A DNA stretch of 64,000 bases from a virus (lineage: Duplodnaviria > Caudoviricetes): IMG/VR virus record IMGVR_UViG_3300031555_003626, positions 1 through 64,000 of that record; one strand, 5' to 3'. This document shows, in pieces, positions 8,512 to 14,572 of the stretch; the first letter of the stretch is position 1; each line of letters begins with the position of its first letter. The position numbers and the translations under genes were made by a program. Under the pieces are notes generated by a model. It was not told the DNA's origin, ran no database searches, and saw nothing but the letters and a program-made list of their open reading frames with translations.

Positions 8512-9414
8512 ATGTCAAATTCTACGTTTAATTTCGCACAGTATCAGCAGATCGCAGCTCAGGAGCAGACCCAGTCCGGCGACGGCACTAAGATTGGTTA
8601 TTTCAAGCTCAAAGATGATGGCGACATCGCTATCGCACGTATCAACCTCAGTTCTACCGATGAGTTTATGTTCGCAGCAGTTCATACTCTTCAGGTAGGT
8701 GGTAAGTGGATGAAGGTAAGTTGCCACAATCCTCTCGGCATGAACGCAGCTGGCTGTCCTCTTTGCTCTGCCCATCAGGCAAATCCTAAGGGCTCTATTA
8801 GCAAGTCCGCTAAGAAGATGTTCATTCCTATGCTCGTTTCTTACCGTGATCCTCAGTCTGCAACCGGTTATACACCTGTTACTCCCGTTATTTGGGATCG
8901 TCCTGCTCAGTTCTCTCGTGAGCTTGCTAATAAGCTTATGGTAGCAGGTAATCTTAAGGATGTTCTCGTTCTCATTACCCGTAACGGTAAGGCGGGTGAC
9001 ATGCAGACTACTTACTCTGTAGACGTTCTTCCTGCAACTCATCCCGTATTTAAGCCTGAGATGATTCCCGCTGACTTCAGTGCTTTCAATAACTTTAATA
9101 TCGCTAAGCACTCCTACTGGGAAAAGACTGTTGAGGAAATTAACACCTTCCTTGCTACCGGTCAGTTCCCTGAGGTTCCTAAGGCAAACAACCAGCAGAC
9201 TGTAAATAACGCAGCAACTTCTGCTAACACTTATGCAGCTCCTGCAACTCCTGCTTACACGGCACCTACTCAGACAGTTCCTACTCAGACAGTTCCTGCC
9301 TACACTGCTCCTGCTTATAATGCGGTTAATACCGCACCTGCAACAGCTCCCGCTATTAACACTGCTGGTTCCGAGCAGACTCCTGTGAGAAACTTCTCCG
9401 GCTTCAGCTTCTAA
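8512..9414 (+). CDS. Single-stranded DNA-binding protein (gp32-like)
   Basis: YFKLKDDGD, H...C...CPLC zinc site, low-complexity Ala/Thr/Pro tail; located between primase and polymerase; strong codon bias. Confidence 0.7.
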   Translation: MSNSTFNFAQYQQIAAQEQTQSGDGTKIGYFKLKDDGDIAIARINLSSTDEFMFAAVHTLQVGGKWMKVSCHNPLGMNAAGCPLCSAHQANPKGSISKSAKKMFIPMLVSYRDPQSATGYTPVTPVIWDRPAQFSRELANKLMVAGNLKDVLVLITRNGKAGDMQTTYSVDVLPATHPVFKPEMIPADFSAFNNFNIAKHSYWEKTVEEINTFLATGQFPEVPKANNQQTVNNAATSANTYAAPATPAYTAPTQTVPTQTVPAYTAPAYNAVNTAPATAPAINTAGSEQTPVRNFSGFSF

Positions 9415-9535
9415 TCTCAATTAGTTAAAACAAGATTAGGCTAATCTAAATTATACAAATTTAAAAGACGGGTCTAAAACGATCCGTCTTTTATTGTATT
9501 ATATTATATAAAATATATTTTAAGCGAGGTTATAC

Positions 9536-11404
9536 ATGAATAGTTTATTTGGTGGCTTTGATTTATCAGTAAGTGCAAAGCCAAAAGTATCACCTGAAGC
9601 TCTTATCAAAAAAGCAACCCCGACTGTTGCAGCAGAGCCTAAGAAGATAACTAATCAGAGTTTATTTGCTTCTGAAGAATTATCTGAATTTAATGTAGAA
9701 CTTAATAAACCTAAGCCTGAAGCCTTGGCTCGTAAGATTGCAAGTACTGAAGAAGGCGAAGTAGACGCTGCTAAGGTACTTAAGTCTAAGAAGGTATCTC
9801 TTGCTGAAAAGCTTGCCTTAATTAAAATTAAGGTCCTTGAAGTACTCGGTAAGCAGAGAAAGAACGTAGTTGTAATTAAGGATAAGGCAACTTTTGAAGA
9901 CTATGTTTCTAAGGCAATTGAGTTCGGTCGAATTGCAATAGACACTGAGACCAATAACTCTACCGACCCCATGACTTGTCAGCTAATGGGTCTTTGCTTG
10001 TATTATGAAGGCGGTAAGCAGGCTTATATTCCTATCAATCACGTTAACCCTGAAACTGGAGAACATCTTGATTGGCAGCTAACTGAAGAAGACTGTAGAG
10101 TACAGCTTCAGAGAATTAAGGATGCAGGCACTTTTGTAGTAATGCACAACGGTAAGTTCGATTATGAAGTTATTAAGTGCACTTGTGGTATTGAGATTGA
10201 GCCTGACTGGGATACTATGATAGGCGCTCATACTATCAATGAAAATGAGAAAATGAACCTCAAGTGGCAGTACATTAATAAGATTGACCCCACTCAGGAA
10301 AAGTATGATATCGAAAGCTTGTTCATCGTTCCGTATAAGTATGTAGAACCTGATATCTTTGCTCTCTACGCTGCGACCGACTCTATGATGACTGATAAAC
10401 TTTATGTATATCAGGTAGCTATTTTGGAAGCACCCGGCAACGAAAGACTTTACTGGATGTTTAAAACTATTGAGATGCCGATTGTTAAAGTTGCAGGCGA
10501 TATGGAGCTTATCGGTGTTTGTATTGACCAGGAATTTGGTGAAAGACTTCGTCTTAAGTTTAATCAGAATTTGGAAGATATTGACGTAAGAATTGAGCAA
10601 GAACTTGAGGCTCTCAAGCCTACAATTACAAAGTGGAAGAGCAGTAAGGATGCTACTGATAGAACTAAGCAGTTTGAGCCTAAGAAGACTACTCTCTCAC
10701 TTGCAAAGCTTGAAGAAAAGTATCCTTATGTAGACGAAAAGACTGGTAAAAGATACAAGGTTGGTAAGTCTAAAATTGAACAGCTTGCTGATCCTATCAA
10801 CCTTGCTTCGCCTACGCAGCTTGCTATACTATTTTATGATATTTTAAAGTGTCCTACGGTAAGCAAAAAATCGCCCAGAGGAACTGGAAAAGACGAGCTT
10901 GAGGCTTTAGCTGAGAGAACTGATATCGCGCTCTGTAAGCTGATTTTGGAGCGTCGTGGAGTGGTTAAACTTATCTCAACTTATATTGACGTTCTGCCTG
11001 CTCTTGCAAGACATTGGCCTGACGGACGTATTCGTTATAAGCTTAATTCTGTCGGTACTGATACTGGTCGTTTCTCTTCTGGTGGTGAATTTAAGTTCCT
11101 TGATGGTGATGAGCCTGTAGAAATTTCTGGATTTAACAGTCAGAATATTCCTTCTCGTGGAGACGGTAAAATCACTCGTCTTTTGTTTGAGGCTAAGAAA
11201 GAATTTGCTGATATTGAAGTGGATGTAGACCGTTTTACGGTACATGAAACAGCGGAGATCGAAACTGTTGACGGTTGGAAGTACGGAAAAGATATTGTAG
11301 CACTAAAAGATAGTGTACTTACGGACGATGGACCTGCTCTTATTGAAGTAGTTAGCTATGATGTTTTGAAGAAAGAATACGAATTTATTGTGAGGAAGTA
11401 TTAA
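9536..11404 (+). CDS. polA: Family A DNA polymerase, fragment 1 (3'-5' exonuclease, thumb, start of palm) plus Hint-like tail
   Basis: IAIDTET, HNGKFD, YAATD, NLASPTQL, TGRFSS, NSQNIP. Confidence 0.9.
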   Translation: MNSLFGGFDLSVSAKPKVSPEALIKKATPTVAAEPKKITNQSLFASEELSEFNVELNKPKPEALARKIASTEEGEVDAAKVLKSKKVSLAEKLALIKIKVLEVLGKQRKNVVVIKDKATFEDYVSKAIEFGRIAIDTETNNSTDPMTCQLMGLCLYYEGGKQAYIPINHVNPETGEHLDWQLTEEDCRVQLQRIKDAGTFVVMHNGKFDYEVIKCTCGIEIEPDWDTMIGAHTINENEKMNLKWQYINKIDPTQEKYDIESLFIVPYKYVEPDIFALYAATDSMMTDKLYVYQVAILEAPGNERLYWMFKTIEMPIVKVAGDMELIGVCIDQEFGERLRLKFNQNLEDIDVRIEQELEALKPTITKWKSSKDATDRTKQFEPKKTTLSLAKLEEKYPYVDEKTGKRYKVGKSKIEQLADPINLASPTQLAILFYDILKCPTVSKKSPRGTGKDELEALAERTDIALCKLILERRGVVKLISTYIDVLPALARHWPDGRIRYKLNSVGTDTGRFSSGGEFKFLDGDEPVEISGFNSQNIPSRGDGKITRLLFEAKKEFADIEVDVDRFTVHETAEIETVDGWKYGKDIVALKDSVLTDDGPALIEVVSYDVLKKEYEFIVRKY

Positions 11405-11835
11405 TGAAAGTAAGAACAAGAACTCAATATAAACTTGTCGGATCAGACTACTCTGCTCAAGAACCCCGTATAACAACGTATCTTTCTGGAGATCCAAACA
11501 TGCGACAGGCTTATCTCGAAGGCAAAGATTTATACTGCGTTATCGCATCAAATATTTATAATAATAAGTACGAAGAGAACCTGGAAAATTTTCCAGAAGG
11601 CCATGTACTTGAGCTTGACGGTAAAAAGACTGTGGCTGGAAATGATAAAAGCTATAAAAAGCAGGTTTCAGATAAGCTAGAAGTTCCTTATTATTATTTG
11701 GTACCAACTATTTCTGGAACAAAAGCGGCAGCTGAAATTCAGGCTGGTGATAGCATTATTGCTGATGAAGGTGCTTTTACTGTTGGTACTGTTGCGACTA
11801 TAAATGATATAACAACAATTTATTTTGTTGATTAA
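11404..11835 (+). CDS. polA: Family A DNA polymerase, fragment 2 (motif A) plus Hint-like tail
   Basis: LVGSDYSAQEPR (motif A), GKDLY; TAATG-coupled to fragment 1. Confidence 0.88.
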   Translation: MKVRTRTQYKLVGSDYSAQEPRITTYLSGDPNMRQAYLEGKDLYCVIASNIYNNKYEENLENFPEGHVLELDGKKTVAGNDKSYKKQVSDKLEVPYYYLVPTISGTKAAAEIQAGDSIIADEGAFTVGTVATINDITTIYFVD

Positions 11836-11895
11836 ATTATTAGCTAAATTAAATAGGATACATTCCGTAAATAACAGCGAGGAGCAATTTAATTT

Positions 11896-12915
11896 ATGCT
11901 ATATGTAATTTATTTAATCACAAATTTAATTAACAACAAAAAGTATGTTGGTCAGACTCAGCAAGGTCGCGAAGAAAAACGTTGGCAGGAGCATTTTGTT
12001 TACACAGTAAATGACAATAAGCTTCTTCATAATGCTATTAGAAAGTATGGCCCTGAAAATTTTGAAGTTAAGACTATAGAAACAGACATACCTGAAGAGC
12101 TAATTGACGAACGAGAATGCTATTATATTAAGTATTATAACACTTTCTATCTAAATAAACAAGGCTATAATATGACTGAAGGCGGCCAAGGGATTCACGG
12201 GTATATTCATACAGAAGAAACTAAGCAACAGATTAAAGAAAGTAATTTAGCTACTTGGCAAAAAATTAAAGAAGAAGAGCCTGAACGCTACTCTCGACTT
12301 TGTTTAAATAGAAGTCTTGCTAACAAAGGAAAGCCCAAATCTGCTGAGCATCGCGCTAAAATGAGTGTGATTGCTTCAGCACGTATTGGAGAGAAAAATT
12401 CTTTTTACGGAAAGCACTTTTCGGAAGAGTCAAAAGAAAAACAACGTGAAAACTGGAGAACTAAGTGCGAACCTATTAAAGCTTTTTCCGCACAAACTGG
12501 CCAGCTGTATAAAAAGTATTATACTGCGATGGATGCTGTTCGAGACTTAAATCTGCAAAGTAGCGCAAATAGCCGTATTATAACAATATGTAAAGAGCAA
12601 AAGGGTGTTGGTTATGGATTTATTTGGCGATATGAAAAAGATTGTCCGGATGATTTTATTTTGGTAGCTAAGCATGAGCCACTATTAAGGCAGGACACTG
12701 GAATTAAAAAGTCCGCTGTAGCAAAAAAAGTTTTTCAATATGATAGTCAAAACAACTTAATAGCAGAGTTTGAATCTGCGGCTGAGGCAGCACGTAAGCT
12801 TCAACCAGACCAAGCTAAGCAACGAAACTTAGCGAAAAAAATAAATTGTACTTGCCGAGGACAGTATAAAACTTGCCACGGTTATGTTTGGAGCTACATG
12901 AAATTAGACAGTTAA
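11896..12915 (+). mobile_element. Free-standing GIY-YIG homing endonuclease (NUMOD3/NUMOD1-like repeats) inside the polymerase locus
   Basis: VIYLITN..KKYVGQT, ERE, GYNMTEGG, HTEETKQ, GEKNSFYGKH; has its own promoter and RBS. Confidence 0.88.
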
Positions 12916-12960
12916 TATCGTATTTTATAATAATATAATTATTGAGGAGGTGATGCCTAC

Positions 12961-13920
12961 ATGAGTACTATTAAAACAATTGAAATAAAGTCCCCACCAA
13001 AGCTTCTTAATAAAGAAGGCAAGGAAAGACGTTCGGTTGCGAAGATGGTGCTTTTGTGACGAAACTTGGCACTTACGTATGGAATGGGGCCAAGCACGTT
13101 GGCAAAACGTATTAATAAAACAAATCAGGAAGCACAAGAGATTTTCGATAACTTCTTTAAGAGCTTTCCGAAGGTAGAAGAGCTTATTAATAGCTCGAAA
13201 GAATTTTTAAGAACTCACGGTTATGTAGAAGACTGGGCAGGTAGAAGACGTCATTTGACAGATTACTTCCTTAATCCTTATGAAGCTTCTTACATGGATC
13301 CTGATAAGCTTATTGCTCAGACTTTTAATCCTATTCTTGGTTGTGAGAGCAGACCTCTTGTAGATGATAAGCTCACTTCTTGGGTAAATAGAGCTAAGAC
13401 AACTAAGAATAATAAAGAATTTGATGAGCTTGCTAAGTTGGCAGCAAAAGAAGGAATTATTCTATCTGCAAATACCGGTAGAATCGCTCAGGCAGAGAGA
13501 CAGTGCCTTAATGCAAGAATTCAGGGATCTGCAGCTTCACTTACTAAGCTGGCTATGATCCAGATTCATAATAGTCAGGAACTTAAAGATATTGATGCAA
13601 AACTTGTTATGACTATTCATGATGAAGTTATGCTCGAATGCCCTGCTTTGTATGCAGACCAGGCATCCGAGATTCTTCCAAGAATTATGATTGATGCTGC
13701 TGCACCTTATATCGATGTTCCTATGAAATGTGACCCTGCTATTGAGTCTCGTTGGTATACTTCGGAGTACGCCGTAGCTGTTCAGTCTGAGTTTAAGAAG
13801 CTTACTGATAAAGGACTTGAAAGAGATGAAGCATTTAAGAAGCTTTATGCTAAGCACCCCGAGCTTCCTGAAGAAGCTATTTACAAAACTATTACTGAAG
13901 GCATTGACCTTGAATTTTAA
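12961..13920 (+). CDS. polA: Family A DNA polymerase, fragment 3 (motifs B and C), interrupted by an in-frame TGA at 13057-13059
   Basis: GAGGAGGTG RBS, then MSTIK...KERRSVAKMVLL*RNL-ALTYGMG in one frame; NARIQGSAA; TIHDEV. Confidence 0.85.
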
Positions 13921-13945
13921 TATACGAAGGAGAAATTTTTAAGTT

Positions 13946-14572
13946 TTGGTAACACCCGGATTTTTAGAGAATGGTATTGATTTTGACCCGTTGATCGACT
14001 ATTATGTGGCTAATAATTACTATGTTGAAGTGGTAAACCAATCAGAAGTTAAAGTAGCAACAGCTTTAACAGAAAGTGTTATTAATAATAGCCACGGATA
14101 TCAGGAGGAAGAGAGCTCTGCAAAGAAGCCTAACGTTAGGCTTCGAATGATTTTTAACTCTATGTTATGGGAAAAGATCGTAAAAAGAGTCAGTAGTTTA
14201 ATTAGGAAAAGCAGCGCTGTATGGCTAGTTGGTGGTTCTTATGAAAAAGGCACGGACTTCCAATCAACTGACGGCGTTGATATTGAAGCAAAAGTATATA
14301 AAGATATAAACAGCATGAATTTTTATGCTAAAAAAGGCTCTGTAGACTATACTGTATTTCATGGTGCCGAATATGTACTTTGTTATTTGATTAATAGTCA
14401 TGAAAATAAACACGTATATTGGCTTAAAAAAACTAATGGAATATATCATATATATAATGATGAAGGATTAGAGTACTTAACAAGCAAGCGCCTGCCACAG
14501 GTGATTCCAGTTTGTTACTGTACGATAAGGCCTGATAAAATTATTTTCGGTAAAAGTACTTATTGTACTTAA
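13946..14572 (+). CDS. Hypothetical protein, possible PD-(D/E)xK nuclease fold
   Basis: TDF.....DIEAK pattern; TTG start with long RBS spacing. Confidence 0.45.
   Translation: MVTPGFLENGIDFDPLIDYYVANNYYVEVVNQSEVKVATALTESVINNSHGYQEEESSAKKPNVRLRMIFNSMLWEKIVKRVSSLIRKSSAVWLVGGSYEKGTDFQSTDGVDIEAKVYKDINSMNFYAKKGSVDYTVFHGAEYVLCYLINSHENKHVYWLKKTNGIYHIYNDEGLEYLTSKRLPQVIPVCYCTIRPDKIIFGKSTYCT

Follow-up and report, generated by a model that had tools for sequence, protein, structure and literature searches.

Dead mini-Hint modules on the broken ends of a split phage DNA polymerase: candidate non-covalent clasps with a slot for a homing endonuclease

How can a DNA polymerase that is encoded in separate pieces, cut right beside its active-site motifs, be held together as one enzyme? 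The question is raised by a virus of the Caudoviricetes (IMG/VR record IMGVR_UViG_3300031555_003626), in which the list of open reading frames (ORFs) places a family A DNA polymerase in pieces between positions 9536 and 13920. The stretch analysed, hereafter the window, is the first 64 kb (64,000 nt) of this 233-kb record, and all features described lie on its plus strand. The answer that we favour, with a probability of roughly 60 %, is that two copies of a dead mini-Hint module, a relic of the protein-splicing (intein) superfamily, rejoin the polymerase chains non-covalently, and that the break within each module is the slot occupied by a homing endonuclease gene.

Fragment 1 (F1, 9536-11404, 622 aa) carries the 3′-5′ exonuclease, the thumb and the palm up to the strand before motif A (Pfam DNA_pol_A_exo1 and DNA_pol_A), aligns to the polymerases of Streptococcus phage Dp-1 and Clostridium phage CS32 through residue 553, and ends in a 68-aa tail (tail 1, 11198-11401). 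Its stop codon overlaps the start codon of fragment 2 as TAATG (11402-11406); a Shine-Dalgarno sequence, GAGGAAG, can be read at 11392-11398, and F1 and F2 are predicted to be translationally coupled. Fragment 2 (F2, 11404-11835, 143 aa, 106 homologues) opens with a short head (head 2, MKVRTRTQ, 11404-11427), continues with motif A (DYSAQEPR) and the N-terminal fingers (Pfam DNA_pol_A positions 150-201), and closes with a 64-aa tail (tail 2, NDKSYKK...IYFVD, 11641-11832). Beyond a free-standing endonuclease gene (11896-12915), fragment 3 (F3) starts at the ATG at 12961, behind the Shine-Dalgarno sequence GAGGAGGTGAT (12944-12954, likewise read from the sequence), with head 3 (MSTIKTIEIKSPP, 12961-12999). 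Its first 32 codons (12961-13056) include the start of motif B (RRSVAKMVLL) and end with the putative take-off codon TTG, after which a 12-nt insert intervenes (13057-13068); the remainder (13069-13920) encodes ALTYGMG of motif B, the fingers, motif C (HDE) and the C-terminus (Pfam DNA_pol_A, 1.2e-39; 39 % identity to Dp-1 over 268 aa). The Pfam matches on all three fragments and the alignment to Dp-1 identify a family A polymerase with 3′-5′ exonuclease and motifs A, B and C, motif B being interrupted by the insert; F1 holds the exonuclease plus the first third of the polymerase domain, F2 holds motif A, and the remainder lies in F3. Since every fragment has its own Shine-Dalgarno sequence and start codon, the pieces appear to be built for separate translation.

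A preliminary description, made from this DNA alone, had taken the two tails for additions of about 68 and 64 aa that align with each other, and had noticed short beta-like heads on the fragments that follow. Comparison with unsplit polymerases bore out all of these points, the lengths and coordinates exactly. At site 1, homology to the one-piece Dp-1 and CS32 enzymes ends after ..ITRLLFEAK and resumes at YKLVGSDY (..YKLVGSDYSAQEPR), so that F1 is left with a tail of 68 aa and F2 with the head MKVRTRT(Q). At site 2, the unsplit relatives P0093, P0102 and P0106 read ..EGTVLELDGNKTVCGYKTHLNKEGKERRSVAKMVLLALTYGMG (..TVCGYKTHLNKEGKERR..), so that tail 2 comprises 64 aa and head 3 is MSTIKTIEIKSPPK; this head is kept in the related loci L006, L025, L086, L087 and L089. 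The tails matched in profile-profile comparison (hhalign, probability 94.5 %, E 7.5e-8, 50 columns), and a joint alignment was colinear along the whole tail. How tails and heads belong together can be read from 13 related loci in which tail 1, a loop and head 2 form one uninterrupted segment of ∼78 aa, in frame with the polymerase. These one-piece forms indicate that tail and head together make up a single domain, interrupted in the loop that leads to its last strand: the tails supply the first six strands of modules 1 and 2, and the heads supply the last. In L021 and eight other aligned loci, the counterpart of head 2 within the one-piece module is strand E88-95 (..IKVRTRY). Copy 1 of the module sits in the hairpin just before motif A and copy 2 just before the O-helix of motif B.

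The resemblance of the tails to inteins and Hint domains, noted at first from a loose motif, proved to be homology by sequence profile as well as by fold. A profile built from the polymerase modules only gave 336 matches at E≤1e-3 among 1.84 billion proteins. Matches beyond polymerase fragments included intein-bearing terminases and other proteins (E 1e-10 to 1e-7), and the matched stretch in the intein-bearing proteins overlaps Pfam Hint_2, PT-HINT or Intein_splicing (for example P0242 at 1.4e-10, P0258, P0260, P0261, P0265 and P0266). With a tail-2 profile, the top matches among 177,635 PDB sequences were a bacterial intein-like (BIL) domain (2lwy, 5.6e-4), the gp41-1 intein (0.01) and a DnaX intein (0.015). 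Pfam PT-HINT matched 5 of 20 tails weakly, below the family threshold, and an earlier profile (A2) that still contained polymerase flanks reached gp41-1 only at E 0.78.

Structure prediction led to the same superfamily. AlphaFold2 folded the one-piece module of L021 (22-row alignment) into an eight-strand all-beta domain with a predicted local distance difference test score (pLDDT) of 93-97, in which the head sequence forms the last strand. When this model was compared with 48,161 PDB chains by a search independent of Foldseek, the first 13 matches all belonged to the Hint superfamily, led by PI-SceI (Z 7.2; root-mean-square deviation (rmsd) 1.8 Å over 61 residues) and including BIL domains; the Prp8, MchDnaB-1 and gp41-1 inteins scored Z 6.9-7.0, Vint ranked 15th and the Hedgehog C-terminal domain 25th. 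Tail 2 modelled alone (pLDDT 87) had inteins as its top 10 structural matches (best Z 6.4, rmsd 1.5 Å over 53 residues). Foldseek alone gave no match to the module at E≤0.001, its top matches still being inteins (best gp41-1, E 0.019). Both models superpose on the top Hint chains at 1.5-2.2 Å over ∼50-60 residues, roughly half a Hint domain; a Hint fold is predicted for both modules. It is thus well supported that the two tails with their heads are two copies of one all-beta domain of ∼78 aa, a miniaturised and dead descendant of the Hint family. The preliminary description had called the tails split-intein relics. The derivation from a Hint or intein domain stood; the ancestor may have been a split intein or, as the one-piece in-frame forms allow, a contiguous degenerate mini-intein.

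The states of the module were followed in 84 related loci, near-duplicates included. Site 1 is without insert in 35 loci, split with no gene in the break in 28, split with a gene in the break in eight, and in frame in 13. At site 2 the corresponding numbers are 73, four, five and none, and two loci could not be classified. Eleven of the 13 in-frame loci were checked; in nine the frame is complete (980-1111 aa) and includes motifs A, B and C, and in the other two it runs past the locus end. In the window the break of module 2 holds a GIY-YIG homing-endonuclease gene with NUMOD1 and NUMOD3 DNA-binding motifs (Pfam GIY-YIG 8e-7, NUMOD3 2.6e-11, NUMOD1 2.1e-6), and the break at site 1 holds no endonuclease gene. 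L006/L007 have a GIY-YIG gene, 66 % identical, at the same place in site 2, while the site-1 break holds an intact GIY-YIG gene in L014 and L048 and a decayed one in L089 and L035. Endonuclease genes of the relatives therefore lie, at both sites, exactly in the loop where the domain is broken, in keeping with the earlier suggestion that the tails give the endonuclease a safe insertion point. Two breaks are occupied otherwise: a 619-aa ORF of no assigned family lies in the site-1 break of L074 (2095-3951), and a 321-aa helix-turn-helix-type protein is encoded in the site-2 break of L087/L088 (L087:4522-5487). The slot is thus not reserved for GIY-YIG enzymes.

The modules are maintained as protein. 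Homologues with conserved tails are present in public metagenomes in large number (>280 of fragment 1, about 100 of fragment 2), and the ratio of nonsynonymous to synonymous substitution rates (dN/dS) against relatives was 0.10-0.14 for the tails (0.11 for tail 2) and 0.006-0.09 for the polymerase core. The tails are under purifying selection. There is also a hint of mobility from a single case, the fragment P0077, which is clean at site 1 and carries module 2: some 30 codons before the module, its identity to P0018 climbs from 49 % to 83 %, a pattern that would fit lateral transfer with co-conversion of the flank. A strong mosaic of synonymous divergence (dS) was seen around the module when window positions 9536-11640 were compared with L008/L009, the values against L008 being 0.44 for the F1 core, 0.13 for tail 1 and 1.17 for the F2 core; it suggests recombination breakpoints at the module borders.

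Two known arrangements come close to this one. In the 'fractured genes' of phage-like DNA (Dassa et al. 2009, PMC2677866), which include the gp41-1 intein (PDB 6qaz/6riz), split inteins flank a free-standing homing-endonuclease gene. There as here, a cut at a conserved site divides a replication gene into neighbouring ORFs that carry Hint-derived pieces on the broken ends, and a free-standing GIY-YIG gene lies between the pieces (at site 2 in the window; at site 1 in L014, L048 and L089), and gp41-1 is among the best matches of our module in both sequence and structure. However, fractured-gene inteins of ∼125 aa keep Cys1, TxxH and HN+Ser/Cys and splice in trans, whereas the ∼78-aa module retains no conserved splicing residue, also occurs unsplit in one-piece polymerases, and must stay in the enzyme. 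The second arrangement is the nrdA-a / mobE / nrdA-b 'genes in pieces' of Aeromonas phage Aeh1 (Crona et al. 2011, PMC3045599), where an endonuclease insertion likewise splits an essential gene and leaves separately translated fragments with cassette-derived tails that are missing from unsplit homologues. A degenerate-intein origin of those tails was raised by the authors (PMC3045599), and the C- and N-terminal tails were proposed to be interaction domains, as is proposed for the tails here. In Aeh1 the tails are short, charged peptides that act in the dimerisation of heterodimers and in which neither a fold nor homology to inteins is recognised; those described here form a conserved, recognisable Hint-derived domain, present twice in one enzyme, with a putative role as a clasp. 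By fold and profile the module also belongs with the non-splicing Hint relatives (BIL, PT-HINT, Vint and the Hedgehog C-terminal domain), which, unlike it, are of full size and retain, as a minimum, the N-terminal nucleophile needed for autoprocessing. To our knowledge no domain of these types acts as a split, non-catalytic clasp. A search of the accessible literature found no earlier description of non-splicing mini-Hint tails on split polymerases, which is not proof of absence.

From these observations we infer that docking is non-covalent and that docking is the function under selection. The break in each copy of the module precedes the last beta-strand and lies in a loop, so that six strands close the upstream chain and the seventh opens the downstream chain. 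The chains would be made separately, each from its own ribosome-binding site, and the head strand would then insert into the sheet of the tail much as split-intein halves associate, re-forming the domain. The re-formed domain would clip the polymerase pieces together beside the active site without a peptide bond, and the module would remain in the mature enzyme. The mobile cassette would accordingly read N-terminal part of the module, endonuclease gene, last strand of the module, an element that splits the gene and itself supplies tolerance of the split.

Binding by a module was assessed by complex prediction for tail 2 with the 32-aa start of F3, which gave an interaction prediction score from aligned errors (ipSAE) of 0.57 against 0.01 for the best control, a result rated 'weak support' by the tool. 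The mark used is reached by 58 of 80 solved complexes and by 2 of 110 mismatches; scores of 0.60 or below belong to 7 of those 80 complexes and to both passing mismatches. Runs agreed in at least 83 % of contacts with a partner pLDDT of at least 55, and custom alignments were used, so these calibration counts hold roughly. Several considerations weigh against the clasp. This sole complex test was passed weakly. The pieces of the polymerase also have extensive native contacts with one another, the cut through the palm sheet lying between strands, and in Aeh1 the NrdA fragments do not require their tails to associate (PMC3045599). The one-piece in-frame forms imply that the module is tolerated or useful without a split, so that it might have another role. 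Structural Z-scores of 6-7 are in a range common for small beta domains, and the case for the fold thus rests on all top matches being inteins together with the independent sequence-profile evidence. The counts among the 84 loci do not represent independent events. Finally, an unconventional splicing chemistry would, at long odds, be compatible with the sequence.

That last possibility, in which unconventional split inteins still ligate the three chains by protein trans-splicing, draws on the Hint homology and fold, on the layout of the fractured genes, whose split inteins around a free-standing endonuclease gene do splice (PMC2677866), and on variants with a Cys near the module start (PWCYL). 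Yet the catalytic residues are gone. The preliminary description had seen neither an N-terminal Cys/Ser block nor a His-Asn end, and both are missing from the window and from the family alike. At the position that corresponds to intein residue 1, no Cys or Ser is conserved; it is Thr in tail 1, Glu93 of F2 in tail 2 (residue 14 of the tail-2 model, assigned by structural equivalence) and T/S/V/I/L/E/K across relatives. No block B TxxH and no conserved His were found in the 30-row module alignment, in which only T24, G27 and G45 are invariant or nearly so. As to block G, the heads have no conserved Asn or Gln, their patterns being MKV(R/K)TRT.Y and M..(T)IE(V/I)KSPP with ends in K/R-T-R or I-K-S-P-P. 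The module is also small, ∼78 aa against at least about 125 aa in known splicing domains, and ∼60 of its residues superpose on Hint domains, which have 125-150 aa. The possibility that the 'PWC' variants of tail 2 are live inteins was considered and rejected, the Cys lying at about position 5 and the heads being of the same non-intein kind (MSTIKTIEVKSPP). With every catalytic feature that can be read from sequence missing, splicing is very unlikely.

A more serious competitor, unlikely in our estimate but clearly ahead of splicing, holds that the module is a functional accessory domain, for example one contacting the clamp, a helicase or DNA, that the splits fall in the most permissive loop, and that native interfaces hold the chains with docking incidental. 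The 13 loci with the module in frame in one-piece polymerases (full frames in nine) favour it, as do purifying selection on the tails with or without an endonuclease gene and the dispensability of the Aeh1 tails. Against it, the polymerase can do without the module, which is missing from site 1 in 35 loci and from site 2 in 73; homologous copies at two different conserved sites, both associated with endonucleases, form the pattern of a mobile element; and the break falls in the same topological loop in both copies. Group I introns that bear endonuclease genes are a frequent interruption of phage polymerase genes, and the tails might accordingly be read-through into such introns, as in SPO1-type phage polymerase genes, with the mRNA spliced, or else meaningless cassette flanks. 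The site-1 insert, at only ∼230 nt, would suit this. Against it, a comparison of 9000-14500 with Rfam gave no match even at E≤1, every fragment has a start codon and a strong Shine-Dalgarno sequence, and the tails are conserved as protein with a dN/dS of about 0.1, have confident predicted folds, and run in frame and uninterrupted in one-piece relatives. This explanation is hardly credible. Little better is that of a decaying pseudogene broken by selfish DNA while another enzyme replicates the genome. It could account for two splits and an in-frame TGA in motif B, and it is highly improbable for a gene whose catalytic motifs are all intact, whose core has a dN/dS of 0.006-0.09, whose architecture recurs in L006/L007, and whose tailed split fragments have hundreds of public homologues.

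The TGA leads to a second peculiarity of the locus. The preliminary description had spoken of a tripartite polymerase and made no mention of this stop codon within F3. Motif B of F3 (13054-13068) reads TTG-TGA-CGA-AAC-TTG, with the in-frame TGA at 13057, and can be written as TTG/TGACGAAAC/TTG, a 12-nt insert (TGA CGA AAC TTG) that places the stop first and ends in a copy of the preceding TTG. The insert is missing from relatives with a clean motif B (L008, L025 and L086), and dropping the 12 nt restores their spacing (..AKMVLLALTYGMG). The part downstream of the insert has no start codon or Shine-Dalgarno sequence to serve it. F3 is therefore whole only if the ribosome hops over the 12 nt; 'tripartite' holds on that condition, and otherwise the enzyme would be in four pieces with the O-helix cut.

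Similar inserts occur in relatives. In motif B they were found in L006 (5606-5668; ACT/TAGCGT/ACT, 9 nt), L089 (4522-4586; ACC/TAAAGTGA/ACT, 11 nt, shifting the frame) and L087 (5590-5678). The last is 35 nt long and starts TTG/TGA, but ahead of GCA CTT ACT no codon matches as a landing site, the adjacent one being TCG; this may be a longer bypass in which re-pairing is imperfect, or the gene may really be broken. Stop-first inserts of 5-12 nt were also found in motif A (GSDYS..AQEPR) of L016 (4031-4078), L033 (4034-4084), L014 (4031-4084), L035 (4031-4081), L048 (4031-4077), L066 (4031-4077) and L040 (3978-4024), for example TCT/TAG/TCT, GAA/TAGCCT/GAG and GCC/TA/GCT. Among these loci L014, L048 and L035 have a site-1 endonuclease gene or its remnant, and none was detected there in the others; motif A of the window (11440-11481) is clean. 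Most inserts are flanked by identical or synonymous codons, TGA, TAG and TAA are all used in those of the relatives, and several shift the frame. An alternative genetic code or read-through of the in-frame TGA was considered and discarded: the use of all three stops and the frame-shifting inserts exclude both, and the window has no tRNA genes. The inserts fit very short programmed ribosome hopping, to judge from their sequences.

A precedent is the topoisomerase of phage T4, whose genes 39/60 are split by mobA and where gene 60 has a 50-nt translational bypass (bioRxiv 10.1101/2022.08.31.505936). In both systems an endonuclease cassette splits an enzyme gene, and a stop-first non-coding insert with matching flank codons lies just downstream. 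The inserts here differ in their length of 5-35 nt (12 nt in the window) and their location in polymerase motifs A or B, and T4 lacks a Hint-derived module. Tentatively, and at somewhat less than even odds, a widespread mobile cassette of large phages may offset its own damage twice, by a shrunken dead intein, split around the endonuclease gene, that docks the chains and by a stop-first insert of 5-35 nt that is hopped over, the insert site probably being the endonuclease target. Programmed bypassing would then be common rather than an oddity of T4.

If the clasp holds, these polymerases would provide a natural case of a protein-splicing element decayed into a simple non-covalent clasp, show how an essential gene can survive being split by a selfish endonuclease, and give a defined fold to the idea of 'interaction tails' for endonuclease-split genes. 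All three states of the module (in frame, broken, and broken around an endonuclease gene) occur in one family, which makes it possible to test directly how split genes and split inteins evolve. Hundreds of metagenomic PolA genes of this type that look 'truncated' probably encode functional multi-chain enzymes. A 70-aa piece and a strand of 7-13 aa that re-form a domain might also serve as an orthogonal protein-complementation tag.

Megablast of the locus against GenBank phages gave no match, and tblastn found only distant one-piece homologues, those of Dp-1 and CS32. The whole record contains the two module copies of the polymerase and their duplicates at 229.7-230.3 kb, and no others. Positions 229688-230325 of the record are a 100 % identical copy of window positions 11195-11832, within the polymerase locus; this copy near the record end may be a long terminal repeat, or it may reflect overlapping assembly ends of a genome that is circularly permuted and ∼218 kb long. 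In more distant polymerases (L069:3331-3780, L078:3165-3527 and L045:3393-3767) the first fragment ends in divergent tails (e.g. ..DRCEEIELADGTWQWVELVKVGDKL..) that are still more intein-like in look, and the module family, judged by these tails, is probably broader than the set sampled here.

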